A DNA stretch of 64,000 nt from Vicinamibacterales bacterium. GTDB lineage: Bacteria > Acidobacteriota > Vicinamibacteria > Vicinamibacterales > 2-12-FULL-66-21. This document shows positions 5,098-63,803 of the stretch, piece by piece (within the stretch, counting starts at the first letter, position 1; every line of letters begins with the position of its first letter). The notes beneath the pieces were generated by a model. The model had not been told where the DNA came from. It worked only from the letters and a program-made list of their open reading frames with translations, and searched no databases. The stretch is taken from assembly GCA_048594975.1 (NCBI GenBank), contig JBMDXQ010000090.1, positions 416,102 through 480,101 of the forward strand. The letters run 5' to 3'. The position numbers and the translations under genes are program-made.

Positions 5098-6273
5098 GTG
5101 AAACATGCAACGGCCGACCGCGCGCGTGACTGGTTCAACGTCTACACGCGCGACCTGTCGGCCGAGGACCTGCAACGGCTCTTCACGCACGACACGCCGT
5201 GGGCCTACCGCTTCTTCGCGCGTGGCCTCGGCGACGAGGACCTCGCCGCGCTGCCGCGCTGGAAGCGGCTGCCGCATCAGCTCCGCCGGGTCTTCGTCGC
5301 CTTCACGCTGAAGCTGCCACCGGCGCGGCGCGCCCTTTACATCGGCGCGCTGGCGATCGCGGTGGTGGGGTTGCTGCAGCTGTTCCGCGGGTTTGCAGTG
5401 GTCGACGTTCCGCTGGGGACCCCGTTCTTCCAGGTCGGGCTCCCGATGCCGGTGTGGGCGCCAGGGACGCTCGCGCTGCTCGCCAGCCTCCTGCTCGTCA
5501 ACCTGCTCGTCCTGATGGAGGTCGCCGATCGGCTCTCGCTCAAGGGCGAGCTGGAGATCGCGCGGGAGATCCAGCTCGCCATGCTGCCGACCGGCACCTA
5601 CGTCGGGCCCGGGCTGCAGATCTGCGGCATGACGCGGCCGGCCAACACCGTCGGCGGCGACTTCTACGACGTCCTGCCGCGGCCGGACGGTCGGGTCATC
5701 GTCGCCCTCGGGGATGTCGCCGGCAAGGGCAGCCCGGCCGCGCTGCTGATGGCGCTGCTGCTCGCGGTGCTGCGGACGCTCGTCGACGAGGACCTTGGTG
5801 CGCCGGCGCTGATCAAGCGGCTCAACGTCCAGATCTGCCGCCACACACCCGCCTCGCGGTTCATCACGCTGTTCTACGGGGTGTACTCGCCGGCCTCGGG
5901 CGCGCTGACCTACGTTAACGCCGGACAGAACCCGCCGCTGGTCCGCCGCGCCGACGGCAGCTACGAGGAGTTGGGGAGCACCGGCGTCGCGCTCGGGATG
6001 TTCGAAGGATCGCGGTTCGAGGCGGCGACGACCGCCATCGCCCCGGGCGAGATGCTCATCATGTACAGCGACGGGATCACCGAGGCCGAGGACCCGAACG
6101 GACAGCCGCTCGACGAGGCCGGCCTCGAGCGCGTCATCGAAGCGCACGCCGGTGAGCCGCCATCCGAGATCGGCCGGCACGTGCTCCGCGCCGTCGAGCG
6201 TCACACCGACAGCACGCGGTTCCAGGACGATCTGACGATCCTCGTCCTCGCGCGCGATCAGTCGAAGGCGTAG
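5098..6273 (+). CDS. membrane-anchored SpoIIE/RsbU-type PP2C protein phosphatase
   Basis: 391 aa; N-terminal hydrophobic helices, then VGGDFYDV, GDVAGKG and YSDGITEA motifs; starts 7 nt after kbl. Confidence 0.85.
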   Translation: MKHATADRARDWFNVYTRDLSAEDLQRLFTHDTPWAYRFFARGLGDEDLAALPRWKRLPHQLRRVFVAFTLKLPPARRALYIGALAIAVVGLLQLFRGFAVVDVPLGTPFFQVGLPMPVWAPGTLALLASLLLVNLLVLMEVADRLSLKGELEIAREIQLAMLPTGTYVGPGLQICGMTRPANTVGGDFYDVLPRPDGRVIVALGDVAGKGSPAALLMALLLAVLRTLVDEDLGAPALIKRLNVQICRHTPASRFITLFYGVYSPASGALTYVNAGQNPPLVRRADGSYEELGSTGVALGMFEGSRFEAATTAIAPGEMLIMYSDGITEAEDPNGQPLDEAGLERVIEAHAGEPPSEIGRHVLRAVERHTDSTRFQDDLTILVLARDQSKA

Positions 6274-11392: not shown

Positions 11393-13186
11393 ATGGAAAC
11401 GGTTACGCTGACGATCGACGGCCGCCAGATCACGACCGAGAAGGGCAAGACCGTCCTCCAGGCTGCCATCGAAAACGGCATCAAGATCCCGTACTACTGC
11501 TATCACCCCGCGCTCGGCGTGGACGGCTCGTGCCGTGTCTGCATCGTCAAGGTCGAGAAGATCCCGAAGCTGCAGACCTCGTGCTCGACCCCGGTCGCAG
11601 AGGGGATGGTTGTCTCGACCCAGGCGCCCGACGTCGTCGCCGCACGGGCCAGCGTGTTCGAGTTCCTGTTGATCAATCACCCGCTCGACTGCCCGGTGTG
11701 TGACAAGGGCGGCGAGTGCCCGCTGCAGGATTTTTCCTACAGCTTCGGCCCCAACGAGAGCCGCATGGACTTCCCCCGCCGCGTCTTCGACGGCGAGGGG
11801 GTGCGCGCCGACGTCGACTTCGGCCCGACGCTGCTGCTGAACCGCAACCGCTGCATTCTGTGCACGCGGTGCGTCCGGTTCATGCGCGAGATTGACGGCG
11901 ACGCGCAGATCTCGATCGTGGACCGCGGGTACGGCAGCGAGATCGCCACGTTCCAAGAGGAGGGCGTGCTTTCGCTGATCTCCGGCAACCTGATGGACGT
12001 CTGTCCCGTGGGCGCGATCACCACCCGCGACTACCGCTTCAAGTCGCGGCCATGGGATAACCCGAACGCGGTAGACACCATCTGCACGCTGTGCGAGCGC
12101 GGCTGCAACACCACGGCGTGGATCAAGGCGAAGCCGGAGTGGGCGAAGGGGGCGCAGCTGATCCGCATGACGCCGCGGTTCAACCCCGCAGTCAACCAGT
12201 ACTGGATGTGCGACATCGGCCGCTTCGACTACCGCTGGATCGAGGGGGACGAGCGGCTGCAGAAGCCGCTGCTCCGCACCGAGGCGGGGTCGCTCGAGCC
12301 GACCGACTGGACCAACGCGCTGACCAAGCTCGCCGATCGCGTCACCGCCGCCGGCGGCGCCGCTGCGCTTCGCTTCCTCGTCTCGGCGCACGCGTCGCTC
12401 GAGGAGCTGTTCCTCGTCGGCTATCTTGGAAACGCGTGGGGCACGCCGGCCAGCGGTGTCGCGATCTCGTGGCGCACGCGCGAGAAGCCGCAGCCGCCGC
12501 GGACGAAGTTCAAGATCCCTGCAGTGGACGCCCCGAACGTCATCGGCGCGCGCGATCTCGGATTCCCGGTCGAGGTCTCGAAGGACGGGGCGGCGGAGCT
12601 GTCGGCGTTCCGCGCCGAGGTCGAGCAGGGCCGCGTGAAAGCACTGTACGTGCTCGACCCTGGTCCGGTACGGTCAATCGGAGAGGTCGGCTGGATCATC
12701 GAGGCGCGCAGGTCGGGCCGTCTCGGCCTGCTCGTCGTCCAGGGTGTTCTCCTCACCGAGCTCGCGAAGGCGGCTGACCTCGTCCTGCCCGGCGCATCGT
12801 GGGTTGAGAAGGACGCCTCTTACGTGAACGGCGCCGGCCTGCTGCAGGGATCGGCGCGCGCGATTGCGCCTCCCGGGGAAGCCCAGGAAGACTGGCAGGT
12901 GCTCGTCAACGTGGGGCTCGCGCTTGGCGCGGCGCCGACCTACACGAACAGCGCGGCGATCAGGTCGGAACTGGCGGCGGCGCTACGGGGGAACCCGCGA
13001 TACGAACACCTGTCGGAACTCGCGTTCGCGCGCCCCGTGCCGGCCCGCCACTGGCTGCAGGCATCGAACCCGTCGGAGCGATGGAAGTGGGACTTCATGT
13101 TCCAGGACCTGCCACCGGTGAAGTTCGCCGGCGTGCCGGCGGCGACGTCGCTGCCGAACGCCATTACCCTGCGCAAAGTGGACTGA
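11393..13186 (+). CDS. nuoG: NADH-quinone oxidoreductase subunit G-like Fe-S protein (NuoG/Nqo3 family), not in a nuo operon
   Basis: 597 aa; 2Fe-2S region CYHPALGVDGSCRVC; HPLDCPVCDKGGECPLQD; CILCTRCVRF...DVCPVGA; CTLCERGC; then a molybdopterin-oxidoreductase-like domain. Confidence 0.8.
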   Translation: METVTLTIDGRQITTEKGKTVLQAAIENGIKIPYYCYHPALGVDGSCRVCIVKVEKIPKLQTSCSTPVAEGMVVSTQAPDVVAARASVFEFLLINHPLDCPVCDKGGECPLQDFSYSFGPNESRMDFPRRVFDGEGVRADVDFGPTLLLNRNRCILCTRCVRFMREIDGDAQISIVDRGYGSEIATFQEEGVLSLISGNLMDVCPVGAITTRDYRFKSRPWDNPNAVDTICTLCERGCNTTAWIKAKPEWAKGAQLIRMTPRFNPAVNQYWMCDIGRFDYRWIEGDERLQKPLLRTEAGSLEPTDWTNALTKLADRVTAAGGAAALRFLVSAHASLEELFLVGYLGNAWGTPASGVAISWRTREKPQPPRTKFKIPAVDAPNVIGARDLGFPVEVSKDGAAELSAFRAEVEQGRVKALYVLDPGPVRSIGEVGWIIEARRSGRLGLLVVQGVLLTELAKAADLVLPGASWVEKDASYVNGAGLLQGSARAIAPPGEAQEDWQVLVNVGLALGAAPTYTNSAAIRSELAAALRGNPRYEHLSELAFARPVPARHWLQASNPSERWKWDFMFQDLPPVKFAGVPAATSLPNAITLRKVD

Positions 13187-25318: not shown

Positions 25319-25846
25319 ATGGGTGCCATGCGTTGCCCGCTGCTGCCGCAGACCACGCTCTTCGCTGCCGTGATGCTGCTCTCGGCGGTCGGCTGCGGTT
25401 CCGAACCGCGCCAGGCGACGCCACGTGCCGCGCCGCCTGCGCAGGCCGATCCACCGCCGGCGGTCGTGCCGCGAGGCTACCCGGGGGCGCTGCCTCCCCT
25501 ACCGCAGGTACCTTTTCAACCGGCGCGGCCGCTCGACCTGGGCCAGGCCGTGTACGCATTTGCCGCCAGGCATCCGGAGATTCTTCACCACGTTCCCTGC
25601 TTCTGCGGATGCGAGCGGCAGGGACATCGCGGCAACGACGACTGCTTCGTGGCCTCGCGGGAGGCGGACGGCCGTCCGCAATGGGAAATGCACGGCTACG
25701 TCTGAGCGGTGTGCATTGACGTCGCGCGTGACGCGATGCAGATGCACGGCAACGGCACCCCGCTGGCGGCGATTCGCGCCGCCATCGAACGCCGCTACGG
25801 TCCCCACTACCCATCGATGACGCCGGCGCCCGCACCGCCGAAGTAG
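25319..25846 (+). CDS. PCYCGC-family lipoprotein, candidate selenoprotein with in-frame TGA (Sec) at 25703-25705
   Basis: ATG 25319 (or 25328); lipobox LLSAVGC; HHVPCFCGCERQGHRGNDDCF. The frame continues past the TGA for 46 codons to TAG 25844-25846 (40 of 46 codons end in G/C), giving HGYV-U-AVC-IDVA...GTPLAAIRAAIERRY, which matches the C-terminal half of the family as I recall it. Confidence 0.7.
25711..25747 (+). promoter_or_regulatory. SECIS-like hairpin 6 nt downstream of the TGA at 25703
   Basis: GUGCAU (25711-16) pairs with AUGCAC (25742-47). Upper stem 25717-25726 pairs with 25732-25740, with single-nt bulges at A25719 and G25741. Apical loop is CGUGA. Confidence 0.5.
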
Positions 25847-47521: not shown

Positions 47522-47950
47522 TCAGGACGCCGCCTTGCGGCCGAGGATGCGGTCGGCGGCAGCCGTCCCGAGCGCGTCGGCTTCCTCGCTCAACGTGCGG
47601 CGCGCGTTCTCCACCTCCGCCTGCAACTGCGCGGTCGCCGCCGCGATCTGCGTCTCGGCCTCGGCACGGGTGCTCGCCAGGATCCCGGCACGCTCGGCCA
47701 GGGCGGCGCGCCGCATCTCGTCCATCTGCCGGTAGATTTCGCCGCGCGCGTCCGTCGTCCTGCGCTCGAATTCGGCAGTCGCGTTGCGCGCCTCGAGCGC
47801 CGACCGATCCGCCAGCTCGCGCGCCGACGTGATGGCCTTTTCCCGCTCGGCGATGACACGGAGGATCGGCCTGAACAGCAGCCGGTCGAGAATGACCGTC
47901 AGCAGCAGGACGAAGAAGATGACCCAGAAGACGGACAAATCCGGGAGCAC
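47522..47950 (-). CDS. Fo ATP synthase b' subunit
   Basis: 142 aa; GTG start with GGAGG 4 nt upstream; single TM VFWVIFFVLLLTVIL plus a coiled coil. Confidence 0.8.
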   Translation of the reverse strand: MLPDLSVFWVIFFVLLLTVILDRLLFRPILRVIAEREKAITSARELADRSALEARNATAEFERRTTDARGEIYRQMDEMRRAALAERAGILASTRAEAETQIAAATAQLQAEVENARRTLSEEADALGTAAADRILGRKAAS

Positions 47951-48014
47951 GGAACCTCCGGTGGGACGAATCGGATCCTACGGGGCGCACGCGGCGCAGC
48001 CGGGACAAACGTTA

Positions 48015-48024
48015 ATTTATACCA
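48015..48024 (-). promoter_or_regulatory. candidate extended -10 promoter (TGGTATAAAT) for the atp operon
   Basis: Minus strand TGnTATAAA about 65 nt upstream of GTG 47950, in the only AT-rich patch of the selD-atp spacer. Confidence 0.4.
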
Positions 48025-48089
48025 TCCAAAGGGGCTGCGGGGCCAGATCAGCTGGATGGGTGGTTGAAAGGGACGACTGCTTCAGGGTC

Positions 48090-49133
48090 TCAGCGAAGCG
48101 TCACGGCGAGGCTGGTTTCCTGAGCGACCGCCCGGCCGATCGCCCATACCTCGACACCCGCAGCGCCGAGCGCGGACCGCGCGGCGGCGGCGTGCGCGGC
48201 CTCCACGCTGACGAGCAGTCCACCGGATGTCTGCGGATCGTGGAGCAACTGCATGAGGTCGCCGGGAACATCGGGGCCGAGGCGCACACCCGGTCCGAAA
48301 TGCTGGGCGTTGGTGCGGCCGCCGGCGGGGACGTTTCCCTCGACGAGCTCGCGCGCACCTGCCAGGATCGGCACGGCGGCGACGTCGATTTCCAGCGTGC
48401 AGCCGCTCGCCACCGCCATTTCCGAGGCGTGCCCGAGCAGCCCGAAGCCGGTGACGTCCGTACACGCGTGCACGGCGCCAGCCGAGAGCGAGAGGAGCGC
48501 CGCGCTCGCCGCCGCGTTTAACTGCAGCATCGACGCGGTCGCGGCGGCGGCGGCGGCGTGCGGAGCGCGGCCGAACTTGATCGCGGTTGCGACGATCCCG
48601 GTGCCGATCGGCTTGGTGAGCAAGAGGACGTCGCCGGGGCGCGCGCCGCCGTTGGTGAGCACGCGATCCGGGTGGACGTCGCCGGTCACGGCGTAGCCGA
48701 ACTTGATTTCGCTATCCCGAACGGTGTGGCCGCCGAGCAGGGCGACGCCGGCCTCGCGGAGCTTCGCGAGGCCGCCCTCGAAAATGGCGCGCAACACGCT
48801 CCGCTCGGCGTCCTGCGGGAATCCCGCAATCGCCAGCGCGGTGAGCGGACGGCCGCCCATCGCGTAAATGTCGCTCAGCGCGTTGACCGCGGCGATCTGG
48901 CCGTAGACGTAGGGGTCGTCGACAATCGGCGTGAAGAAATCAACCGTCTGCACCAGCGCCCGAGCCTCGTCGAGCCTGTACACACCTGCATCGTCCGAGG
49001 TCCGGTAGTCGACGAGGACCCGGTCGTCGCGGTGGACGGGCAGGTCGCCCAGCACCTGGGCGAGCTCGCCGGCGGCGAGCTTGCTCGCTCAACCGGCGCA
49101 GTGCGAGTAGTCGGTCAGTTTCCTGGTTTCCAC
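48090..49133 (-). CDS. selD: selenide, water dikinase (selenophosphate synthetase), Sec-containing form with TGA at 49089-49091
   Basis: The track ORF (48090-49055) lacks the catalytic N-terminus. In frame upstream: GTG(49133)-ETRKLTDYSHCAG-TGA-ASKLAAGELAQ, matching E. coli LTQYSHGAGCGCK with U at Cys17 and the Lys conserved. Body motifs DFFTPIVDDPY and TDVTGFGLLGH. Confidence 0.85.
49046..49081 (-). promoter_or_regulatory. two adjacent GC hairpins downstream of the selD TGA (SECIS candidates)
   Basis: mRNA AGCUCGCC-GCC-GGCGAGCU (49081-49063) and CGCCCAG-GUG-CUGGGCG (49062-49046). The first starts 7 nt after the UGA. Confidence 0.4.
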
Positions 49134-49292
49134 GGGTTCTCTCAATCTGGGCTGCCTTCGCTCTCCTGCTACGCCTGCTCCCGGGTACGACCGGCGCCTG
49201 TGATTTCACAAGAGAAGAGAAGCCCAACAGCACTGGCTCTCCGGCGTCCCTGCTCCGGTGAATTCCACGGCGCCACCAGTGGCGCACCCCCC

Positions 49293-50150
49293 TCACCGTT
49301 CCGTCAACTGTTCAAAAAGCCGCTGCAGCTCGTCTTCCGACTGGAAGTCGATCTGTATCTTGCCGCCTCTTCCCCTGCGCACGATTTCCACGCGCGTGCC
49401 CAGCGCCAACCGCAGCTTCTCCTCTGCCGCGCGCGTGTGCACGTCCTTCTGCGGCTCTTCACGCCGCGCGGGCGGCTGACCGGCCTTCTTCACGAGCGCT
49501 TCGGTCTCGCGTACTGACAGGCTTCGGGCGACCACCTCGCGCGCCAGCCGGAGCTGCGCGGCCTCGTCGGCGAGCGCGAGCAGCGCGCGGGCGTGGCCCA
49601 TCGAGAGCGCGCCGGTTCCAATGCCACCGCGGACTTCCTGCGGCAGCTTCAGCAGCCGCAGATAATTGGCGACCGACGACCGGTCCTTGCCGACCGCGAC
49701 GGCAATCTGCTCCTGCGTCAGGTGGAATTCGTCGACGAGCCGACGATAGGCCTGCGCCTCTTCCACGGGGTTCAGGTCCTCGCGCTGCACGTTCTCGATG
49801 AGCGCCGCCGCGAGCAGGCGCTCGTCGGGAATGTCGCGAATCACGACGGGGACCTTCAGCAGGCCGGCGCGCTGCGCGGCGCGCCACCGCCGTTCGCCCG
49901 CGACGATCTCGAATCCGTCATCAGCGCGGCGAACGACGATCGGCTGGATCATGCCGGCGGACTTGAGCGACCGCGCGAGCTCCTCGATGCCGGCTTCGTC
50001 GATGGTGCCGCGCGGCTGGAAACGGTTCGGGCGAAGCCGGTCGGTGTCGATCTCGAACGGTCGATCGGTGGCGTCGGCGGGCGACGCGACCGGGGCGTCC
50101 GGAATCAGCGCGGACAGCCCGCGGCCGAGCGCGGGGCGCTTGTCAGCCAT
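49293..50150 (-). CDS. parB: chromosome partitioning protein ParB
   Basis: 285 aa; LGRGLSALI, IVAGERRWRAAQ, HTH EQIAVAVGKDRSSVANYLRLL. Confidence 0.95.
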   Translation of the reverse strand: MADKRPALGRGLSALIPDAPVASPADATDRPFEIDTDRLRPNRFQPRGTIDEAGIEELARSLKSAGMIQPIVVRRADDGFEIVAGERRWRAAQRAGLLKVPVVIRDIPDERLLAAALIENVQREDLNPVEEAQAYRRLVDEFHLTQEQIAVAVGKDRSSVANYLRLLKLPQEVRGGIGTGALSMGHARALLALADEAAQLRLAREVVARSLSVRETEALVKKAGQPPARREEPQKDVHTRAAEEKLRLALGTRVEIVRRGRGGKIQIDFQSEDELQRLFEQLTER

Positions 50151-50961
50151 GCTGGGGCTCCGTTGTCTCCTCGGGGTCGCGCGACGTCTCGTCGCGCGCG
50201 AGCACCTCGCGCGCGAGCGCGAGGTAGGCTTCGGCGCCCCGTGATTTCACGTCGTAGAGGATGACCGGCATGCCGTGGCTCGGCGCCTCGCCGAGCCGGA
50301 TGTTGCGCGGGATCACCGTCGAGTACACGCGCTCCCGGAAGAAGGCGCGAATGTCGCGCGCCACCTGCTGCCCGAGGTTCGTGCGCTCGTCGTACATCGT
50401 GAGCAGCACGCCGTGGATATCGAGCGCCGGGTTGAGCGTGGCGCGAACGCGCCGCAGCGTGGCGACGAGATCGGCGAGCCCCTCGAGCGCGAAGTATTCG
50501 CAGGTGAGCGGAATCAGCACCGCGTCGGCCGCGACGAGCGCGTTCAACGTGAGCAGTCCGAGCGACGGCGGCGTGTCGATGACGATGTAGTGGAAGCGGT
50601 CGCGAAGCGGGTCGAGGAACATGCGGAGCCGCCGCTCGCGGGCGGACAGCGCGACGAGGTCAATTTCGGCGCCGGTGAGGTTGCGGTCGGCGGGGACGAG
50701 CGACAGGCCGTGAACGCGGGTCTCGACGACGAAACGGAGCGGGTCGGCGTGATCGTCGGCAGTGAGCGCCTCGTAGATGGTGCCGGCTGGGGCGGCGTGT
50801 CCCTTGAGTCCGACACCGCTGGTGAGATTCGACTGGGGATCCATGTCGACGAGGAGGACTCGCCGCTCGGCCATCGCCAGGCAGGTGGCGAGGTTGATGG
50901 CGGTGGTGGTCTTGCCGACGCCGCCTTTCTGGTTGGCGACGGCCACGGAATGAGCACGCAT
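50143..50961 (-). CDS. parA: chromosome partitioning ATPase ParA/Soj
   Basis: ATG 50961 in ORF 50143-51153; deviant Walker A NQKGGVGKTT; 8-nt overlap with parB. Confidence 0.95.
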   Translation of the reverse strand: MRAHSVAVANQKGGVGKTTTAINLATCLAMAERRVLLVDMDPQSNLTSGVGLKGHAAPAGTIYEALTADDHADPLRFVVETRVHGLSLVPADRNLTGAEIDLVALSARERRLRMFLDPLRDRFHYIVIDTPPSLGLLTLNALVAADAVLIPLTCEYFALEGLADLVATLRRVRATLNPALDIHGVLLTMYDERTNLGQQVARDIRAFFRERVYSTVIPRNIRLGEAPSHGMPVILYDVKSRGAEAYLALAREVLARDETSRDPEETTEPQHG

Positions 50962-51042
50962 TACTAGGTTGTTTGCCCTAATTCGAGGAACGCGGGCTGT
51001 CGAAAGGCAGCAGGATAGCCTTGCCGGGGCGACCGGGTCAAC

Positions 51043-51056
51043 GTTCCACGTGGAAC
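51043..51056. promoter_or_regulatory. parS centromere-like site
   Basis: Perfect palindrome GTTCCACGTGGAAC, a symmetric variant of the consensus tGTTNCACGTGAAACa, located 82 nt upstream of parA. Confidence 0.75.
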
Positions 51057-51061
51057 ACGGC

Positions 51062-51712
51062 TCAGCCGAGGCGTCGCTTGGACAGCACCGTGAGACGGCT
51101 CTGCAGGCTCTCCACGAGTGGGACGGTCGCCTTCCATTCGAGCGGCGGGACAATGGCGGATGGGAGGTCCGGACCGCTCGGCCCCCGGAAGAGCAGCAAC
51201 AGGCCGTCCGGAGCGAGGAATGCCTGCAGGGTCATCAGCGTCGACGTCTCGACTCGCACGGCGCGCGTGGACACGACGTCGAACGCCTCGTGCAGCTCCG
51301 GGCGGGCGAGCAGTTCCTCGTACCGGCTCGTCTCCACGGTAGCCCCCTCCAGGCCGAGGTGCCGAACGGCTTCACGGAGGAAGGCCGACTTCCGGATCTT
51401 CACCTCGACCATCGTCAGCGACAACCGGGGGATTGCCAGTTTGATGGGGATGGCAGGTGAGCCGCCACCCGATCCGATGTCCAGCAGCCTCAACGCCCCC
51501 GGCTGGAAGTGACGTGCGGCAGCCAGGGGCTCGAGCAGCAGCCGATCGATCGCCTCGTCGATGTCATCGATCGCCGTCAGGTTGATTTTGCGGTTCCAGC
51601 GCGACAGCAGATCGTAATAACGAGCCAGCTGAGCCACGAGGGCCTCCGGCAGAAACCAGCCGGCCCGCGCCGCACGACGGGTGAGGCGGGTTTTCAGGTC
51701 ACGCGGTGCCAC
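51062..51712 (-). CDS. rsmG: 16S rRNA (guanine527-N7)-methyltransferase
   Basis: LLSRWNRKINLT, SAM motif LLDIGSGGGSPAIP. GTG 51712 leaves a 13-nt gap after mnmG; the maximal ORF starts at ATG 51778 (53-nt overlap). Confidence 0.85.
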   Translation of the reverse strand: MAPRDLKTRLTRRAARAGWFLPEALVAQLARYYDLLSRWNRKINLTAIDDIDEAIDRLLLEPLAAARHFQPGALRLLDIGSGGGSPAIPIKLAIPRLSLTMVEVKIRKSAFLREAVRHLGLEGATVETSRYEELLARPELHEAFDVVSTRAVRVETSTLMTLQAFLAPDGLLLLFRGPSGPDLPSAIVPPLEWKATVPLVESLQSRLTVLSKRRLG

Positions 51713-51725
51713 GCCATGCAGCCTA

Positions 51726-53570
51726 TCAGACGGCAGGCGGCGTGCGCGCGCGTTCGAGGCAGGCGAAGACGAGGGCAACAGCGGCCGGCGTTACTCCCGG
51801 AATGCGCCCAGCCTGGCCCAGCGTGGCGGGCTTGGCCTCGGAGAGACGCTCTACCATCTCGCGTGACAGCCCTGGAATCCCGCGGTACTCAAACTCCTCC
51901 GGAATCGGTCGCTCTTCCTGGCGGCGCTGGCGCTCGATGGCAGCCCGCTCGCGTCGTATGTACCCGTCGAACTGGAAATCGGTCTGCAGGCTGACCAGGT
52001 CAAGGTCGCGGCTGGACTGTTCCAGATTCAGCGTCACCTGGCCACTCGCCACCAGCGTCTCCAGTGCGATTTCAGGCTGCTTCAGCGCCTGCGCCGCGAT
52101 CAGCCGTGCGCCGGCCGCCGTCGTCACGACGGTCGTACGAATCCGTTCACGGTTGCGTTCGAAACGCTCGCGCCGCCGCTCGAACCGTTCCCACTGCTCA
52201 TCGTTCACCAACCCAACCCGCCGCCCGAGCGGCGTCAGCCGGAGGTCGGCGTTGTCGATTCTGAGGACCAGGCGATGCTCCGCCCGCGACGTGAACATGC
52301 GGTAGGGCTCGAGGCAGCCGCGGGTCGTCAGATCGTCCACGAGGATTCCGATGTAGGCTTCGGTGCGAAGGAAGGTGAGGGGGGGTCTTCCTCCTACCCG
52401 AAGCGCTGCGTTGAGGCCTGCAACCAGCCCTTGCGCAGCAGCTTCCTCGTACCCGGAAGTCCCGTTGATCTGCCCGGCCAGGTACAGCCCCGGGACGCGC
52501 TTGGTTTCCAGCGTCGGCCGGAGTTCGGTGGGCTGGACGAAATCGTACTCGATGGCATAGCCGGGCCGGAGCATTACGGCGTCCTCGAGACCGGGCAGGG
52601 CGTGCACGAGCGCTTCCTGGGTTTCCGACGGGAGGCTCATCGACAGACCGTTGACGTAGATCTCCTGCACGTCGAGACCCTCTGGTTCGAGGAACAGTTG
52701 ATGACGTTCCCGGTGAGGGAATCGGATCACCTTGTCCTCGAGTGACGGGCAGTAACGCGGTCCGATTCCCGTGATCTGTCCGTTGTACAGCGGCGACAGC
52801 TCGACATTTCGGCGTACCAGGGCGTGGACGCGCTCGGTCGTGTGCAGGAGGTGACAGACGATTTGCTCGCGGTCAATCCGGTCGTTGGCAAACGAGAAAG
52901 GGACCGAGGGCCGATCGCCGTGCTCCTCGCGGAACCGGGAGAAATCGATGCTCCGCCGATCCAACCGCGGAGGAGTGCCCGTCTTGAGGCGCCCGCCACG
53001 GAACCCGAACGCCTTGAGCGAGTCCGCGAGGTCGCGCGATGGAGGCTCCTCGGATCGACCAGCCGGGCGCCGCTCAGGCCCGACGTGAATCAGCCCGTTC
53101 AGGAACGTGCCGGTCGTCACGATGAGGGCCCCGCAGCCGAAGGTCTCGCCGGTTTCGAGCGCAAGACCGCGCACTCCCGAACCGTCGGCCACGATCGATC
53201 CGGCCCTCCCGAAGATCCAGGCGATGTTCGGTTCCCGGTCGATCGCCGACTTCACCCACGCGCTGTACCGCCGTTTGTCCGCCTGCGCCCGCGGCGACCA
53301 CACCGCGGGGCCGCGGCTGCGGTTCAGGAGTTTGAACTGAATGCCCGTCGCGTCGATGGCGCGCCCCATCAGCCCGCCGAGCGCGTCGATCTCGCGGACC
53401 AGGTGGCCCTTTGCGGTGCCGCCGATCGCGGGGTTGCACGGCATGTGAGCCACCGTGTCAGGCGACAGAGTGCATAGGCCCACCGTACGGGCCATGCGCG
53501 CCGCGGCCCACGCCGCCTCGATGCCGGCGTGTCCGGCGCCAATTACGATGATATCAAAAGTACTTTGCAA
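51726..53570 (-). CDS. mnmG: tRNA uridine-5-carboxymethylaminomethyl modification enzyme MnmG (GidA)
   Basis: 614 aa; [16 protein letters not shown]; TTG start. Confidence 0.97.
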
Positions 53571-53576
53571 TGCCTC

Positions 53577-54929
53577 TTACTTTCCAATGCAAAACTTGGA
53601 GAAGATGGCACGCAGCGTGTCGTCCGCGGTGCGTGCGCCGGTCACCTCCTCGAGCGCGGTACGTGCTTCCCGCAGGTCGGCGAGCACGAACTCCTCCGGC
53701 GCCCCGTCGCGCGCCGTGCCGCCCGCGCGCTCGAGCGCCCCGCGGGCGCGCTCCAGCAGCGCCACGTGGCGGACGTTCGTGATCGCCGGAGCGTCGCGGC
53801 GCGGCTCGCCCCCGCTCAGCGCTCGCGCCAGCTCGTCGCGCAGCCGATCGACGCCCGCACCGGTCAACGCACAGACCGGAATGCCTCCGGGTGCCTCCCC
53901 GCCCTGGTCCCATGCCGGCGGGAGATCGATCTTGTTCACCACCACGATCGATCGCAGTGCGCCTGCCTCAGCCAGCAACTTCCGGTCCTGCTGCTCCAGC
54001 GACCGGGATCGATCCAGCACGACGACGAGCAGCTCCGCCACCTCCCGCGCCGCGTGCGCGCGCGCGATCCCTTCCGCCTCGACGGCATCGGCCGCCGCCG
54101 TGTGCACGCCGGCGGTATCCACGAACGTCACGGGAATGCCGGCGATTTCCACTGTCTCGGTGAGCAGGTCGCGCGTCGTGCCCGGAACGTTGGTGACGAT
54201 GGCGCGCCCGGCGCCCGCGAGGGCGTTGAAGAGGCTCGACTTCCCGGTGTTCGGGCGGCCGGCGATCACCACGTGGCCGCCCTCCCGCACCACCCGTCCT
54301 CTCCGGGCATCATCGAGCAGCGCCGACACCGCCGCCGTCAGGTCCCCAATCTCGTGAGCGGCGTCCGTGGAGTCGACGAAGTGATAGCCCTCCTCCGGGA
54401 AATCGAGGGAGGCCTCGAGGCGGGCCGTGAGATCGAAGAGCGCCGAGTCGATCCTGCGAATGGCGCCGGTCAGCGTGCCCTCCAGTTGGTCGAACGCGGC
54501 TCGAGCCTGCAGCGGCGTCACCGCGTCGACGAGATCGCGGACAGCCTCTGCCTGCACGAGGTCCAGCCGGCCGTGCAGGAAGGCGCGCAGCGTGAACTCG
54601 CCCGGCTCGGCGAGCCGCGCGCCGCGCTGCATGCACGCTCCGACGATCGCGCGCAGCAGCACCGGGCTGCCGTGCACGCTGATCTCCACGACGTCCTCCG
54701 CGGTATACGAGTGCGGCGCCGGAAAGTAGGTGAGGACGGCCTCGTCCCGCACGCCGGCACCGCGGACGATCGCCAGCGTCGCGTACCGTGGGGCGAGCGG
54801 GTGCTGCGCGTCGCTGATCTCGAGCGCGATGCGCGCCGCCCCGGGGCCGCTCAGGCGCGCCACGCCGATTCCCCCGCGTCCCGGCGCCGTCGCGATGGCG
54901 ACGATGGTGTCGTCGGTGCTGAAGCCCAC
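53577..54929 (-). CDS. mnmE: tRNA modification GTPase MnmE (TrmE)
   Basis: 450 aa; GRPNTGKSSLFNAL, DTAG, C-terminal FCIGK. Confidence 0.97.
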   Translation of the reverse strand: MGFSTDDTIVAIATAPGRGGIGVARLSGPGAARIALEISDAQHPLAPRYATLAIVRGAGVRDEAVLTYFPAPHSYTAEDVVEISVHGSPVLLRAIVGACMQRGARLAEPGEFTLRAFLHGRLDLVQAEAVRDLVDAVTPLQARAAFDQLEGTLTGAIRRIDSALFDLTARLEASLDFPEEGYHFVDSTDAAHEIGDLTAAVSALLDDARRGRVVREGGHVVIAGRPNTGKSSLFNALAGAGRAIVTNVPGTTRDLLTETVEIAGIPVTFVDTAGVHTAAADAVEAEGIARAHAAREVAELLVVVLDRSRSLEQQDRKLLAEAGALRSIVVVNKIDLPPAWDQGGEAPGGIPVCALTGAGVDRLRDELARALSGGEPRRDAPAITNVRHVALLERARGALERAGGTARDGAPEEFVLADLREARTALEEVTGARTADDTLRAIFSKFCIGK

Positions 54930-54999
54930 AGACAGAGATCGTGGAGTAGTAAGGTGGAAAGGCTCTTAACGATTCCCGCTTACCTCCTGCTGCGTTACG

Positions 55000-55446
55000 C
55001 TATCGCCGGACGGAGATGATGACGGTCTTCATGAACGCGTCGCCGATGCTCTCGGAGGACATCGCCGGATCTTCGGCGACCGTGAGGTGGACGATGCGCC
55101 GCGCGTACGGGTTGAGCGGACCCATCTCCTGCGGACCGGCGCTCTTCGCCTTCTCCATCATGAACCGCGCCATCTGCCGCAGCTCGGCGTCTTTTCCCTT
55201 GCGGTAGTCCAGGCAGTCCACCACGAACGAGCGGTCGTCCTTGAGGTGCCGGCGGAACGCGGTGTTCACGATCTGCTGCAGCGCGTCGAGCGCCTCGCCC
55301 CGGCGACGCAGCAGGTGCTCGCCGCCCTGGCCCGACAGGTCGACGCGAACGTTGTCCGGGGTGTCGATCACCGTCACGTCGAGCGGCAGCCCCATCGTCT
55401 CGAGCGTGCGGCGCACGAAGTCGCGAACGCGGTCCTGCAGTTCCAT
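55000..55446 (-). CDS. jag: Jag/KhpB-like RNA-binding protein (KH + R3H)
   Basis: ATG 55446 overlaps the yidC TAA (TAATG); GPLNPYARRIVHLTV R3H motif. Confidence 0.85.
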   Translation of the reverse strand: MELQDRVRDFVRRTLETMGLPLDVTVIDTPDNVRVDLSGQGGEHLLRRRGEALDALQQIVNTAFRRHLKDDRSFVVDCLDYRKGKDAELRQMARFMMEKAKSAGPQEMGPLNPYARRIVHLTVAEDPAMSSESIGDAFMKTVIISVRR

Positions 55447-57197
55447 TACTTGCGCTCCTTCGACGGCTCCGCCTTGCCAGCGGCGCTCGTCTTTCCCGCG
55501 CCCGCGCTTTTGAGCCGCCGTTCCGCGGCCGGCCGGGGCGGCTTGGCCGGCGGTCCGATCAGGCGGTTGGTCACCACCTGCTGCCCGATCGTCCAGAGGT
55601 TGCTCGCCGTCCAGTAGATCACCAGCCCGCTCGGCATCCACAGGAACATCCCCGTGAAGACGATGGGCATCAGCAGCATCATCTTCTGCTGCATGGGATC
55701 AGCACCCGTCTGCGGCGTCATCTTCGTCTGGATGAACTGCGTGGCGCCCATCAGCAGTGGCGTGATGTAGAGCGGATCGTAGGTGGAGAGGTCCCTGATC
55801 CAGAGCATGAAGGGCGCGCCGCGGAGCTCGATCGCCACCGAGAGCATGGAGTAGAACGCGATGAGGATCGGGAAGGTGAGGAGCATCGGCACGCACCCGC
55901 TCGCCGGGTTTACTCCCCGCTCGCGGTACAGGTTCATCAGCTCGGTGTTCTGCTTGCTCCGCGCCGGATCGCTCATCTTCAGGTGCTTGTAGCGCTCCTG
56001 GATGGCCTTCACCTCCGGCTGCAGCTCCTGCATCTTGCGCATCGAGACGACGCTCTTGTGGCGCAGCGGGAACATCACCAGGTTGATGATCACCGTGAGG
56101 ATGATGATCGACCAGCCCCAGTTGCCCGCATAGCCGTGCACCCACTTGAGCGCGTTGTGGAGCGGGACGACGAACCAGCGGAACATGCCGAAGTCGATCG
56201 CGTACGTCAGGTACGGATCGATCGATTTCAGTACGTCGAAATCCTTCGGTCCGAAGAAAAAGCGCGCCTTCGAGGGGGCGGCGGGGAACGTCGCCGACCA
56301 GGTGACGAATCGCGCGACGGTCCCGGCGCCGTCGGCGGGGACCTGGAACGGCGCATATTTCACGGTGATCGGGGTCCCCGGCGCGATGATCGCGCTCAGG
56401 AAGAAGTGATCGTCCACTCCCGCGAACGGCATCGTCCCCGACACCGAGGCATGTTCCGCGACGTCGTTTTGCCCGACGCGCGTGATCTCCCCCTCGCGCG
56501 AGTAGATCGGCTGCGGCGGCGGGCTGTAGACGAATCCGCTGCTCTTCGCCATCCCGAGCCCGAGTGCCGGCCCCCACTCAACCGTCGGCACGAGGGCCGC
56601 CGCCCCTCGTGTCACGGTTGCGGAGAACTCCAGCAGGTAGGGGTTCTCCGCGGGAAACACGAACGTCTTGTCGGCCGCCAGCCCTGACGCGTCCTCGTAC
56701 TCGAATCGCAGCGTGCCCGGACCGCCTTCGACGTGCACCTCGGTCGCGCTGGGCTTGAACAGCGCGCGCCGGAGCGTCGCCGTGACGGCAGCGTCTTCGA
56801 CGGTCAACGAGAACGGGCGCACCGCTTCCGTCGGGAGGTTCTGCGGCACGAGCTCCAGCGGCCGGCCGGCGGAATCGTGGTATTTCTTCAGTCGCCAGCT
56901 TTTCAGGACCCCGCCGCGAGTCGAAAAGAGAGCGGCGACCGAGTCGTTCTCGTATCGAATGTCACGTTCCTCCGAGTCGCCGACGACCGTGGCGGGCAGC
57001 GGGGCCGCCTCGGGTTCTGCGGCCGACGCCTTGTCTTGGGCCTGAGCAGGCGCGGACTGCGCACCCGGTTGGCTCGCGGCGGGCGCGCTTGGCGACGGCG
57101 CGGCTGTGCGCTGCGGCGGCTTCGGCGGATAAAGCGCCTGGTAGCCGTAGAGCACGACGAACGACAGGATGATCGCGAGAAGGACCCGTTTTTCCAT
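55446..57197 (-). CDS. yidC: membrane protein insertase YidC
   Basis: 583 aa; N-terminal TM, large periplasmic domain, conserved C-terminal 5-TM core. Confidence 0.95.
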   Translation of the reverse strand: MEKRVLLAIILSFVVLYGYQALYPPKPPQRTAAPSPSAPAASQPGAQSAPAQAQDKASAAEPEAAPLPATVVGDSEERDIRYENDSVAALFSTRGGVLKSWRLKKYHDSAGRPLELVPQNLPTEAVRPFSLTVEDAAVTATLRRALFKPSATEVHVEGGPGTLRFEYEDASGLAADKTFVFPAENPYLLEFSATVTRGAAALVPTVEWGPALGLGMAKSSGFVYSPPPQPIYSREGEITRVGQNDVAEHASVSGTMPFAGVDDHFFLSAIIAPGTPITVKYAPFQVPADGAGTVARFVTWSATFPAAPSKARFFFGPKDFDVLKSIDPYLTYAIDFGMFRWFVVPLHNALKWVHGYAGNWGWSIIILTVIINLVMFPLRHKSVVSMRKMQELQPEVKAIQERYKHLKMSDPARSKQNTELMNLYRERGVNPASGCVPMLLTFPILIAFYSMLSVAIELRGAPFMLWIRDLSTYDPLYITPLLMGATQFIQTKMTPQTGADPMQQKMMLLMPIVFTGMFLWMPSGLVIYWTASNLWTIGQQVVTNRLIGPPAKPPRPAAERRLKSAGAGKTSAAGKAEPSKERK

Positions 57198-57200
57198 GTA

Positions 57201-57458
57201 TCAGGACCGCCGCGGTCCGGGCACCGGGTCATAGCCGGAAGACCCCAGCGGGTGGCAACGGGCCAGCCGCCGCAGCGAGAGAGCCGACCCCCGGAGGACG
57301 CCGAACCGGGCCACGGCCTCTGCCGCATATTCCGAGCACGACGGCAGGTAGCGGCACGAACCCGCAAACTGGTGCGACAGCAGTAACTTGTAGGCTCGAA
57401 TGAGGGCCAGGGCGGCGCGCTGGAAAAGCGTCAACCCTTGGGCTTCAGCTTCGCACAT
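57201..57458 (-). CDS. yidD: membrane protein insertion efficiency factor YidD
   Basis: ATG 57458; [28 protein letters not shown]. Confidence 0.9.
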
Positions 57459-57852
57459 GGCCGCGCATGCGTGACTGGCCCCGCGTGAAGGCGCCGCGGA
57501 AGTCGTCCTGGAGGCTATCGTAAGACGCATCGAAGAACCCGGCGCGCGGAATGACGATCACGTCGACGCCGGACTCCTCAGCGCACGCCGTAGTACGTCT
57601 GAACACCTCCCGAATCAACCGTTTAGCGCGGTTTCTCATGACCGCGCCGCCCAGCTTTCTCGACGCCACGACTCCCAGCCGGACCCCAGGGCCCGTGCCC
57701 GGAGCCATGACGAGCGTGAGGTAACGGCCGTGCATTCGAATCCCCGCCTGAAAGGCCTTCTGATACTCCCCCCTTCGCCTGAGACGACGGGCCTTCCCGA
57801 GGCGCTGGGACGACATCCTGCCGATCCCTCCGAGCAGCCGTCCTTGGAGCAC
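57445..57852 (-). CDS. rnpA: ribonuclease P protein component
   Basis: [15 protein letters not shown]...[28 protein letters not shown] 57852 is the maximal start; ATG 57816 is an alternative. Confidence 0.9.
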
Positions 57853-57889
57853 GGGGCGTGGCTCTACTAGCCGGTGGGTTCGGGTCCGA

Positions 57890-58030
57890 CTACGACGAGA
57901 CGGAGAGCCGTTTGCGGCCTTTGGCGCGGCGGCGCTTCAGAACGAGGCGACCGTTCTTGGTGCTCATGCGCACGAGGAACCCGTGAGTACGCCTGCGGCG
58001 CCGGCGGTTTGGCTGAAACGTACGTTTCAT
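57890..58030 (-). CDS. rpmH: 50S ribosomal protein L34
   Basis: Below the ORF-track size cutoff; the reverse strand encodes [46 protein letters not shown] (46 aa). Confidence 0.97.
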
Positions 58031-58194
58031 GATGCTCGATCCCTTGCAGATGGCGGCGAAGAGCGGAGAAACCTAGATAGTAGCCAGCGGCCGCTGGAGT
58101 GTCAATTGAGCGGGCCAGATCTGCACAGCCTGGCACTCGGTCCGGGCGTGTGGTACAGTCGCGGCCCGCGATCCGTGAGGGTCGTCCCCCCAAG

Positions 58195-58226
58195 TTTTCC
58201 ACAACTGTGGAAAAAAATGTGGAAAA
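58195..58226. promoter_or_regulatory. cluster of three identical DnaA boxes upstream of dnaA
   Basis: TTTTCCACA (58195-58203) and two copies of its complement TGTGGAAAA (58206-58214, 58218-58226). One mismatch to TTATCCACA. Confidence 0.8.
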
Positions 58227-58407
58227 GCCAAGGTTTTCGCCCCGATCCCGCCTCCCGATGGCGTAGTGGGGCGGGTTTCGCCGGGGCGAAAGTGCAAAAC
58301 GTGCCGGTTTTCCGGGATGAATCCGCAGTCAGGCTGCAGCAGCCCTTTCCGTTGCCGGAGCGGTCGGGGGGCGAAAGTCTGTTGAATGGCTCCCATGCGA
58401 CACAGGC

Positions 58408-59739
58408 GTGAACATGTCCGCCGCTAATATCTGGGACCTTGTCCTGGGCCTGGTCGAGGCCAAGGTCAACCGGCACAGCTTCTACACCTGGTTTCAGCCG
58501 ACCGCTTTCATCTCCGACGACGGGTCCGTAATTCGCGTGCGCGTTCCGAACGCGTTGTTCCGTGACTGGCTGGCGAAGCACTATGCGGCGGTCCTCGAGG
58601 AGGCGTTTGCTGAGCTCAACCGCCCGCGCGCCACGGTGGAGTTCGTCATGGAGGACGTCGAGGGCGAGCCGGTCGCCTTCGACGAACTTCGACCGGAACC
58701 GCTCCCCACCGAACCGGCATCCGACGATGGATTGGGCCCGCGTTACTCGTTCGACACGTTCGTGGTCGGGCCCTCCAACCAGTTCGCGCACGCCGCCTGC
58801 CGGGCGGTCGCGGAAGCACCCTCCCGCTCGTACAACCCATTGTTCATTTATGGCGGCGTGGGCCTGGGCAAGACGCACTTGATGCATGCCATCGGTCACT
58901 ACGTGCTCAACCACCTGAAGAGCCTCAAGCTGACCTACATCTCGTCCGAGCGTTTCATGAACGAGATGATCAACGCCGTTCGCTACGATCGTGTTCTCGA
59001 CTTCCGCGAGCGCTATCGCAGCGTGGACGTGCTGCTCGTCGACGACGTGCAGTTCCTCGCCGGCAAGGAAGGCACGCAGACCGAGTTCTTCCATACGTTC
59101 AACGCGCTCTACGACGCGCAGAAACAGATCGTCATCAGCAGCGACTGCCCGCCGCGCGAGATCCCGTCGCTCGAGGAACGGCTGCGGTCCCGGTTCGAAT
59201 GGGGGCTGATTGCCGACATCCAGCCACCCGATCTCGAGACCAAGGTTGCGATCCTCAAACGGAAAGCGGAGGCGGAGGGCGTTCCACTCCCCGACGCGGT
59301 GGCCATCTACATCGCCGGCAAGATCAAGTCGAATATCCGCGAACTCGAGGGATCCTTGATTCGGCTCATTGCCTACGCGTCGCTGACCGGCCGCGAAATC
59401 TCGCTGCCGCTCGCCCAGGACGTGCTGCGCAACGTGCTGCAGAACGAAGAGCGCGCCGTGACGATCGAGATCATCCAGAAGTTCGTCTCCGACTACTACC
59501 AGCTGAAACACGGCGAGTTGAAGTCGCGCAACAACTCGAAGTCGGTCGCGATGCCGAGGCAAATCGCAATGTACCTGTGCAAGACGTTGACGAACGCCTC
59601 GCTGCCGGAGATCGGACGGAGTTTCGGAGGCAAGCACCACTCCACGGTGATTCACTCCATCCGGAAGATCGAAGACCTCAGGCAGAAGGACGGAGATTTC
59701 AACACGCTTATCAACAACCTGATGGAGTCGTTCCGCTAG
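58408..59739 (+). CDS. dnaA: chromosomal replication initiator protein DnaA
   Basis: 443 aa (GTG 58408, or ATG 58414); [19 protein letters not shown]-terminal [15 protein letters not shown]. Confidence 0.98.
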
Positions 59740-60027
59740 CACGGCGGCGGGCCACCCGGCTTTTTCCACAGCCGGGCCGCGGGGCTGCCGTGGACGCGCT
59801 GTGGACGCCGCCGCAAGGGAGGATCCCGCACCCGGATTCCGAGTTGCCATCCACTGTAAACAGTACTGGTGGTCCACAGCCTAAACTATAGAAATGTAAG
59901 GACTAAGGGCGCTGTTTTGTGTTTCCAACAGTGACTCTTTATTGATATACTTTCTTGTCCTAGATCTCCCTCTATTCGAAGGGATCGGCGCGTCGCGCCG
60001 GCGCGCCTCCCGCGAGGTCAACACCAC
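59740..60027. other. candidate oriC core: DnaA boxes plus AT-rich unwinding region in the dnaA-dnaN spacer
   Basis: TTTTCCACA at 59762-59770; weaker boxes TGTGGAC (59800-06) and TGGTCCACA (59870-78). 59881-59980 has 37 G+C per 100 nt (hand count), against a G+C-rich surrounding. Confidence 0.7.
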
Positions 60028-61149
60028 ATGGAACTGGTCGTCCGCAAGACCGATCTGCTGCGCGAACTTCAGCTGTTCCAGGGCATCGTCGAACGCAAAA
60101 ACACGATTCCGATTCTGGCCAACGTGCTCATCGAAACGGACGGTGACGAGCTCAAGTTCCTGGCAACCGACCTCGAGGTCGGGCTCCGTAGTCGGTGTGC
60201 AGCATCGGTCGCCAAGGGGGGATCGCTGACGCTTCCCGCCAAGAAACTCTACGAGATCGTCAAGGCGCTGCCGGAGACTGACGTTCGTATCGAGGAAGAC
60301 AAGAACGGCGTCAAGGTTGCAGCCGATCGGTTCGACTCGCGGATGCAAACGCTGCCACGCGAGGATTTTCCGACCTTGCCGGATGCCACCGGAACGGTAA
60401 GCGCGACGCTGCCTCGCCAGGTACTGCGGCAGATGGTCGAGAAGACGCAGTTTGCCATCACCGGCGAGGACACGCGCTACTTCCTCAACGGGGCGCTGTT
60501 CATCCTGCGGCCGGATTCGATGAGCCTGGTGTCGACCGACGGCCATCGTCTGGCGCTCATCACAGTGCCGCGCGAGAAGGGCAAGGGGCGCGGTGCGCGC
60601 GCCGAGGAGGAGGTCCGCGTCATCCTGCCGCGCAAGACGCTGCTCGAGCTCGGGCGGCTGCTGGCCGACGGCGAGGGAGACATCCAGTACGAGCGCGGCG
60701 AGAACCACCTGTTCTTCGACGTCGGCGGCCGGTTGCTGATCTCGCGCATGATCGACGGTCAGTTTCCCGCCTTCGAGCGCGTCATCCCGAAGAGCAACGA
60801 CAAGCGCGTGGACTTCGACCGCGATCGGCTGACCAGCGCGGTGCGCCGTGTGGCGCTGCTCTCGAACGAGCGCTCGCGCGCGGTCAAGTTCGCGATCGAC
60901 AAGGGCCGGGTCGAAATTGCATCGAGCAGCCCGGAGTTCGGCGAGGCGAAGGAAGTCCTCATCGTCGACTACGGCGCCGCTCCGGTGACCATCTGCTTCA
61001 ACGCCCAGTACGTGCTCGACTTCCTCGGCGTGGTGGAAACCGATTCGGTCAGCCTGGAGTTCAAGGACGAGATGAGCCAGGCGGTGATGAAGCCGATCGG
61101 AGCGGACGGGTACGACTACACCTACGTCATCATGCCGATGCGTGTGTGA
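60028..61149 (+). CDS. dnaN: DNA polymerase III beta sliding clamp
   Basis: 373 aa; MELVVRKTDLLRELQLFQGIVERKNTIPILANVLIE. Confidence 0.97.
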   Translation: MELVVRKTDLLRELQLFQGIVERKNTIPILANVLIETDGDELKFLATDLEVGLRSRCAASVAKGGSLTLPAKKLYEIVKALPETDVRIEEDKNGVKVAADRFDSRMQTLPREDFPTLPDATGTVSATLPRQVLRQMVEKTQFAITGEDTRYFLNGALFILRPDSMSLVSTDGHRLALITVPREKGKGRGARAEEEVRVILPRKTLLELGRLLADGEGDIQYERGENHLFFDVGGRLLISRMIDGQFPAFERVIPKSNDKRVDFDRDRLTSAVRRVALLSNERSRAVKFAIDKGRVEIASSSPEFGEAKEVLIVDYGAAPVTICFNAQYVLDFLGVVETDSVSLEFKDEMSQAVMKPIGADGYDYTYVIMPMRV

Positions 61150-61166
61150 ACCACTGAACCTCCTGA

Positions 61167-63800
<2,634 letters not shown>

Positions 63801-63803
<3 letters not shown>

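Follow-up and report, generated by a model that had tools for sequence, protein, structure and literature searches.

Does the TGA that interrupts a minus-strand frame at 49091-49089 of this window (the whole stretch of 64,000 nucleotides (nt) analysed here, from a Vicinamibacterales bacterium) end an open reading frame (ORF), or does it encode selenocysteine (Sec) within a longer gene? Judged from its sequence, the region 48090-49133 is one selD gene for selenide, water dikinase (selenophosphate synthetase) with the loop C-A-G-U-A-S-K, and it is highly probable that the UGA at 49091-49089 encodes Sec in a single gene of 347 residues. An earlier note on the same DNA had held that this selD is itself Sec-encoded and loses its N-terminus to stop-to-stop ORF calling; that view is borne out by protein profiles, by the TGA found in 77 species, by an RNA constraint specific to the Sec forms and by the truncation of about 109 of the 120 closest database proteins.

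The selD frame and its catalytic loop

On the minus strand the selD frame reads V/M-ETRKLTDYSHCAG-[TGA]-ASKLAAGELAQVLGDL and runs unbroken into an ORF of 321 amino acids (aa; 48090-49055). The codons of this segment are GTG(49133) GAA ACC AGG AAA CTG ACC GAC TAC TCG CAC TGC GCC GGT TGA(49091-49089) GCG AGC AAG CTC GCC GCC GGC GAG CTC GCC CAG GTG(49055). The full-length coding sequence (48090-49133, minus strand), as defined by translation, profiles and matches to the PDB, comprises 347 codons including Sec15 and ends at a TGA stop (48092-48090). Its probable start is the GTG at 49131-49133 on the minus strand, with a GAGAG element 6-10 nt upstream, and an in-frame TTG at 49145-49143 provides an alternative. 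The proteins of related species start 3-8 residues ahead of the (K/R)LT.Y motif (for example MKKLTDY in locus L001 and MERRLTSY in locus L016), which fits GTG 49133, and this codon was chosen over TTG 49145 as the likely start. A scan of 47900-49400 for promoters and terminators found nothing. The arrangement of GTG 49133, in-frame TGA and 321-aa ORF had been described in the earlier note, and both its coordinates and its translation check out.

For matching to profiles and structures, the TGA of the 347-residue product was written as Cys. The full-length product, including the 26 codons upstream of the 321-aa ORF, matched the selD model TIGR00476 with 366.4 bits (cutoff 125) over model positions 1-310 of 311, and NF002098 with 315 bits (cutoff 299), again with the upstream 26 codons counted in. 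Comparison of the U-containing translation with SelD families, which the earlier note had suggested as a check, thus gave matches from model position 1. Among structures, the product matched E. coli SelD (3u0o, E = 1e-69, residues 5-338) and Aquifex SelD (2yye, 6e-61). The AIR-synthase-related N-terminal domain occupies residues 47-152 (48678-48995, minus strand; PF00586, 92 bits) and the AIR-synthase-related C-terminal domain residues 165-339 (48117-48641, minus strand; PF02769, 84 bits).

The phmmer alignment with 3u0o places K5-LTDYSHCAG-C15-AS-K18 on R7-LTQYSHGAG-C17-GC-K20, so that the TGA falls on Cys17 and Lys18 on Lys20, in agreement with the earlier placing of the TGA at the Cys17 position with the conserved Lys three residues on. 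In Aquifex SelD the same column holds the corresponding Cys (SSGCAAK in the crystallised chain). Alignment to both proteins thus makes the TGA at 49089-49091 (minus strand) residue 15, Sec, in the E. coli Cys17 column, and the codon at 49080-49082 (minus strand) Lys18, the equivalent of the catalytic Lys20 of E. coli SelD, a residue that is invariant across relatives. The glycine-rich loop with catalytic Cys/Sec and Lys is present solely if the TGA is read through; the 321-aa ORF from GTG 49055, already described as devoid of the catalytic loop, indeed has the Cys17 and Lys20 equivalents upstream of it in the alignment.

The predicted protein shares with E. coli SelD (3U0O) its family, its domain order and the N-terminal loop LT.YSH.AG-[C/U]-..K. 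E. coli SelD has Cys17 and a second cysteine, Cys19, whereas the window protein has Sec in the Cys17 column, Ser where E. coli has Cys19, and a Cys three residues ahead of the Sec. Similarity to Aquifex aeolicus SelD (2YYE/2ZOD, crystallised with Cys) extends to the loop itself, which is SSG(C)AAK in that protein and SG-U-A-[AS]-K here; native Aquifex SelD presumably carries Sec. Likewise, Acetomicrobium mobile SelD (BSepDB) has TSGUAAK, and an intragenic stem-loop directly follows its UGA.

A conserved TGA followed by two hairpins

A scan of contigs taken from one genome per species gave 80 loci, nearly all of them from metagenome-assembled genomes (MAGs) labelled Vicinamibacterales/Acidobacteriota, with 59-75% protein identity, which assigns the window to that lineage. 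Two loci (L066 and L068) end before the TGA column, which leaves 78 readable there. An in-frame TGA stands at the exact column in 77 of these and TGC in one (L055). When the window is added to the 77 species loci, the stop at this column is TGA in 78 of 78 sequences and TAA or TAG in none, and the flanking peptide is kept on both sides as (K/R)LT.Y..C[AS]G-U-ASKLAAGELAQVL. Such conservation of the TGA column in 78 of 78 sequences, with the frame kept on both sides, is far beyond chance. Five of the loci (L027, L049, L073, L076 and L079) carry a Sec-selD of acidobacterial type in MAGs labelled Caldimonas, Betaproteobacteria, cyanobacterium, Burkholderiales or Rubrivivax, which could reflect mis-binning or lateral transfer.

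The Cys12 codon of the window (49098-49100, minus strand) forms a C-x-x-U motif with Sec15. The loop is CAG*ASK in 72, CSG*ASK in 5 and SAG*ASK in 1 of the 78 Sec-form sequences, so that 77 of 78 have a Cys at the third residue ahead of Sec (C-[AS]-G-U); this Cys is also found as C-[AG]-G-C in forms of the protein with Cys in place of Sec. Cys12 may act as a resolving cysteine particular to this lineage.

Two hairpins follow the UGA on the minus strand; RNA positions are counted here with the U of UGA as 1. Hairpin H1 (49063-49081) has 8 base pairs (bp) in the window (positions 11-29), a GCC loop and a folding energy of -13.2 kcal/mol; its cross-species core consists of positions 13-18/22-27 (49079-49065, minus strand) closed by a GCN loop at 49073-49071. 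Hairpin H2 (49046-49062) has 7 bp (30-36/40-46), a GUG loop and an energy of -11.2 kcal/mol, and is the best candidate for the Sec insertion sequence (SECIS) bound by SelB. Across species its apical loop is GUS, or a pentaloop G-GUS-C, at 49056-49052, with G37 and U38 invariant. In the window this loop (positions 37-39) is the GTG at 49053-49055 (minus strand; Val26) from which the 321-aa ORF is called. Both hairpins occur where the earlier note had placed two stable ones, at 49081-49063 and 49062-49046. The 66-nt region containing them folds at -35.6 kcal/mol (z = -2.76), an energy reached by 3 of 200 shuffled sequences.

Comparative data support both structures. RNAalifold, run unguided on the 78 sequences, recovered H1 and H2, and 98% of the H1/H2 cells form standard pairs; shifting the 3′ partners by 1-3 columns lowers this to 23-43%. 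Double-sided changes were seen at three pairs, all of them in H2. At pair 33-43, 38 sequences have C-G, 39 have U-A and one has U-G, with at least 5 changes on a neighbour-joining tree of the rest of the protein; the pair couples the synonymous third position of an Ala codon (GCC/GCU) with the first position of a Gly/Ser codon (GGC/AGC). Pair 31-45 is G-C in 49 sequences, G-U in 28 and U-G in 1. Third codon positions located in the loops (21 and 39) are free, with entropies of 1.9 and 1.2 bits; those in the stems are invariant or nearly so (15, 27 and 42) or essentially restricted to C/U, both of which pair with G (24 and 45). Two further stems, H0 (4-8/13-17) and a long-range one (4-8/28-32), were considered and not adopted, since both are invariant and so uninformative; H0 is also no less conserved in the Cys forms.

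Natural variants with Cys provided a control for these structures. The 120 closest database proteins include 11 that are full-length; they carry Cys and keep the peptide, GCASKLAAGELA.VLG. The DNA of 8 of these 11 proteins was located in nine loci (L081-L089), and eight distinct Cys-form sequences were compared. All nine loci lie downstream of parB, and genes of the atp operon come next wherever the contig reaches that far, in the neighbourhood parA-parB-selD-atp; since they share this gene neighbourhood, they are orthologues of the Sec forms. In these nine syntenic loci the codon at the Sec column is TGC or TGT. The eight distinct sequences show drift at the synonymous sites on which closure of the hairpins depends (GCG at position 33, GGG at 24, and Leu codons TTG or CTT). 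H2 is fully paired in 68 of 78 Sec forms vs none of 8 Cys forms (Fisher p = 8e-7) and H1 in 69 of 78 vs 3 of 8 (Fisher p = 0.002), although the sequences are phylogenetically related and both the counts and the tests overstate their independence. The direction of the difference is unambiguous: selection acts on the hairpins only where the codon is UGA, and the peptide sequence cannot by itself account for them. Several Cys forms retain partly intact hairpins, as in L086 and L088 (6 of 6 pairs in H1 and 5 of 7 in H2), which looks like what is left after a recent conversion of Sec to Cys; change in this direction has been reported mainly for SelD and FdhA (PMC1794560).

The two hairpins differ in how well they fit the known bacterial SECIS (bSECIS) model of Zhang and Gladyshev, as summarised in PMC13188914, which specifies a loop of 3-9 nt, an upper stem of 4-16 bp and a minimum free energy of -7.5 kcal/mol or below. 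The model further requires that the first two loop nucleotides include a G (usually N-G-[G/U]-N-N) and that the loop lie 16-37 nt from the UGA (PMC13188914). H2 agrees with the model in all respects, given its 7 bp, its loop GUG or G-GUG-C, its spacing of 32-33 nt and its energy of -11.2 kcal/mol. H1 agrees in loop, stem and energy, and has a spacing of 14-15 nt.

On balance we favour H2 as the predicted contact of SelB, the alternative being H1 or the two hairpins acting jointly. That H1 (49081-49063) is instead the SelB-binding SECIS within the Sec reading, with H2 auxiliary or unrelated, is a less probable solution that has to be taken seriously. The minimal SECIS of E. coli fdhF, which we take to lie at about positions 14-31 with its G23/U24 loop about 18 nt after the UGA, is matched in position by H1 (13-27). 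BSepDB prints a SECIS for Acetomicrobium mobile selD whose stem spans about 15-29 by our own reading, and H1 agrees in position with this one as well; H1 is the more stable hairpin in the window (-13.2 against -11.2 kcal/mol), and it too degrades in Cys forms (3 of 8 fully paired, against 69 of 78). On the contrary, its spacing falls just outside the 16-37 nt of the model, its loop is G-C-N and not G-[G/U], and it shows no compensatory changes. Furthermore, the second SECIS-like hairpin of this genome, which follows a TGA at 25703 and is described below, has the loop CGUGA, sharing the central G-U with H2 (G-G-U-G-C) and not with H1.

H2 resembles both the fdhF element and the bSECIS model in being an intragenic stem-loop located 3′ of the UGA with G and then U in a small apical loop. 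The arrangement differs from fdhF in that the GU loop lies 32-33 nt from the UGA and H1 occupies the fdhF-equivalent position, and it differs from the Sec-SelD genes of Aquifex and Acetomicrobium in having two tandem conserved hairpins, of which the distal one has the best fit to the bSECIS model. Tandem hairpins with the model-compliant loop in the distal one are the sole mildly unusual aspect of the gene.

According to this proposal, a complex of SelB, GTP and Sec-tRNA(Sec) would be recruited by the mRNA structure located within the coding sequence just 3′ of the UGA, and Sec would be inserted at the UGA in place of termination. The recruiting structure would be the two conserved tandem hairpins, with H2, whose loop lies 32-33 nt after the UGA, as the likelier SelB-binding SECIS and H1 as a putative additional element conserved specifically in Sec forms. 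We infer the insertion of Sec, the binding of SelB and the choice of hairpin from these comparisons. A more tentative and rather doubtful extension is that the Vicinamibacterales selD signal is a lineage-specific two-hairpin bSECIS, in which SelB would contact the G-GUS-C loop of the distal hairpin (32-33 nt, towards the upper limit of the known range) and the proximal hairpin would serve as spacer, pausing element or second contact; Sec-SelD and a PCYCGC-family U-x-x-C protein would then be among the selenoproteins that maintain the Sec trait in a large, mostly uncultured soil lineage, almost entirely missed by public annotation.

Termination, read-through and the Sec machinery

The public gene calls depict the gene differently. 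Of the 120 closest database proteins, about 109 lack the N-terminus and measure 296-323 aa, among them the 100%-identical NCBI protein P0001; this protein, P0002 and P0035 begin M/VLGDLPV. When the UGA is taken as a stop, ORF callers restart at the next GTG, which is the H2 loop, and so yield the 321-aa product without the Sec/Lys loop. The loop GTG is GTC or GTT, and offers no start codon, in 27 of 78 relatives, which would explain the shorter database entries of 296-316 aa.

These calls, P0001 among them, and the lack of visible Sec machinery within the window agree with the TGA being a genuine stop, in which case the locus would be a pseudogene or would produce only a truncated SelD-like protein of 321 aa from GTG 49055. 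We consider this very unlikely. The 14 codons upstream of the TGA are kept in frame in 77 other species and the SelD profile is matched from its first position, the stop codon is always TGA, and the truncated product would be devoid of the equivalents of Cys17 and Lys20. In addition, the supposed GTG start is not conserved, and the RNA hairpins after the TGA are under constraint specific to Sec forms. Homologues that begin at the equivalent of GTG 49055 with no conserved frame upstream, named in the earlier note as contrary evidence, were not encountered, the upstream frame being conserved everywhere.

Sec decoding at this UGA is also preferred to read-through without Sec-tRNA(Sec). The latter, by near-cognate insertion of Trp or Cys or by a lineage-wide reassignment of UGA, would be compatible with a Sec incorporation that is predicted here from sequence and with a Cys that is functional at this position in orthologues, but it has very little probability, since SelD proteins canonically have Sec or Cys at this position, the structure downstream fits the bacterial SECIS model, and a second gene of the window combines a TGA/TGC pair at a CxxC cysteine with a SECIS-like hairpin of its own. 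Global reassignment is excluded by the ordinary use of the codon: TGA is the commonest stop in the window (24 of 43 ORFs supported by G+C content at third codon positions) and also terminates selD, and so the genetic code is standard and any recoding must be local.

The second gene is a candidate selenoprotein of the PCYCGC family, lipoprotein-like, located at about 25319-25846 on the plus strand, with its TGA at 25703-25705 and a hairpin at 25711-25747. PF13798 (PCYCGC) matches with 86.5 bits and reaches the end of the model (153/153) only when the TGA at 25703 is read through, within the motif HGYV-U-AVC (U-x-x-C). Fifteen metagenomic relatives were retrieved, 13 of them readable at this point; the codon is TGA in 11 (HG..-U-..C, with conservation continuing beyond) and TGC in 2 (C-x-x-C). 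The hairpin after the TGA is two-tiered (-20.5 kcal/mol), with its CGUGA loop 21 nt from the UGA, and in its stem a G-C pair is replaced by C-G among the relatives, a compensatory change. The reading of this TGA as Sec had been put forward in the earlier note, and the TGA/TGC pair, the completion of PF13798 and the SECIS-like hairpin support such a signature. A literature search found no link between PCYCGC proteins and selenoproteins in the library searched, and the PCYCGC-family U-x-x-C protein is a more novel item of the window than selD.

Besides the relatedness of the compared sequences, several observations weigh against Sec insertion in selD through the hairpins described. ARAGORN found 0 tRNAs in the 64-kb window, and hence no tRNA-Sec; no SelB/EF-Tu-type G-domain motif was seen in its six frames; and the NCBIfam scan of ten long window ORFs gave no SelA or SelB profile match. 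The existence of orthologues with Cys shows that the SelD enzyme can do without Sec. The architecture of the signal is not fully canonical, as H1 is 1-2 nt short of the spacing criterion with G-C in place of G-G/U in its loop, and H1 lacks double-sided covariation, its pairs being invariant or changed on one side. An Rfam scan of the whole window returned 0 families, yet bacterial SECIS elements are sequence-divergent, so this result carries little weight.

The matches that the ten long ORFs did give in the NCBIfam scan were aminotransferase, BioF/Kbl-family acyltransferase, PP2C-like phosphatase domains, M1 peptidase-like, ABC ATPase and MnmE.

Machinery was detected in one of the related loci. 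ARAGORN identified tRNA-Sec in a single one of the 80 loci, L079 (from the MAG labelled Rubrivivax), where selB and tRNA-Sec lie 3.5 kb upstream of its own Sec-selD; the SelB of L079, used as a tblastn query on the window and every locus, matched L079 alone. The selB of L079 is apparently split over two frames (485-1303 and 109-2388), which may be an assembly frameshift, and is followed by tRNA-Sec at 2416-2511. Its Sec-selD (6001-7032) is of the Vicinamibacterales type, with 59% identity, the same two hairpins and the compensatory U31-G45 change. Acidobacteria were already counted among Sec-decoding phyla in 2006 (PMC1794560). With indirect support from the PCYCGC-family gene, the source organism of the window is probably a Sec user.

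A Sec formate dehydrogenase was also considered for ORF 11393-13186, which begins like NuoG or formate dehydrogenase alpha, and was rejected, as this is a complete ORF of 597 aa followed by a separate ORF of 622 aa. The latter appears to encode a membrane protein with thioredoxin-like features.

Annotation and gene neighbourhood

Among prokaryotic selenoprotein families SelD ranks second in how widely it occurs, and its mis-annotation is common (PMC13188914, PMC13326102, PMC1794560), in agreement with the earlier remark that Sec-containing SelD is an established variant. Both the Sec form and its mis-annotation are thus well documented, and the present case adds little conceptually. It corrects an annotation error by which the public protein and about 90% of its nearest database relatives appear without the catalytic Sec/Lys loop. 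As a consequence of such truncated entries, surveys at the protein level would misjudge the use of selenium in Vicinamibacterales, a widespread soil acidobacterial order. In addition, the comparison of Sec with Cys orthologues that share peptide and neighbourhood is a clean natural experiment on hairpin selection.

The selD gene lies in the region of the chromosomal origin (window positions 48090-63803), in a minus-strand cluster with the atp operon, selD, parB (49293-50150), parA, rsmG, mnmG, mnmE (53577-54929) and a yidC-like gene. This cluster is followed by plus-strand ORFs resembling dnaA (58408-59739), dnaN and gyrB. Among the names used for this region, MnmE alone was confirmed by a profile, the others being read from the translations. 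The order parB-selD-atp is kept in the relatives.

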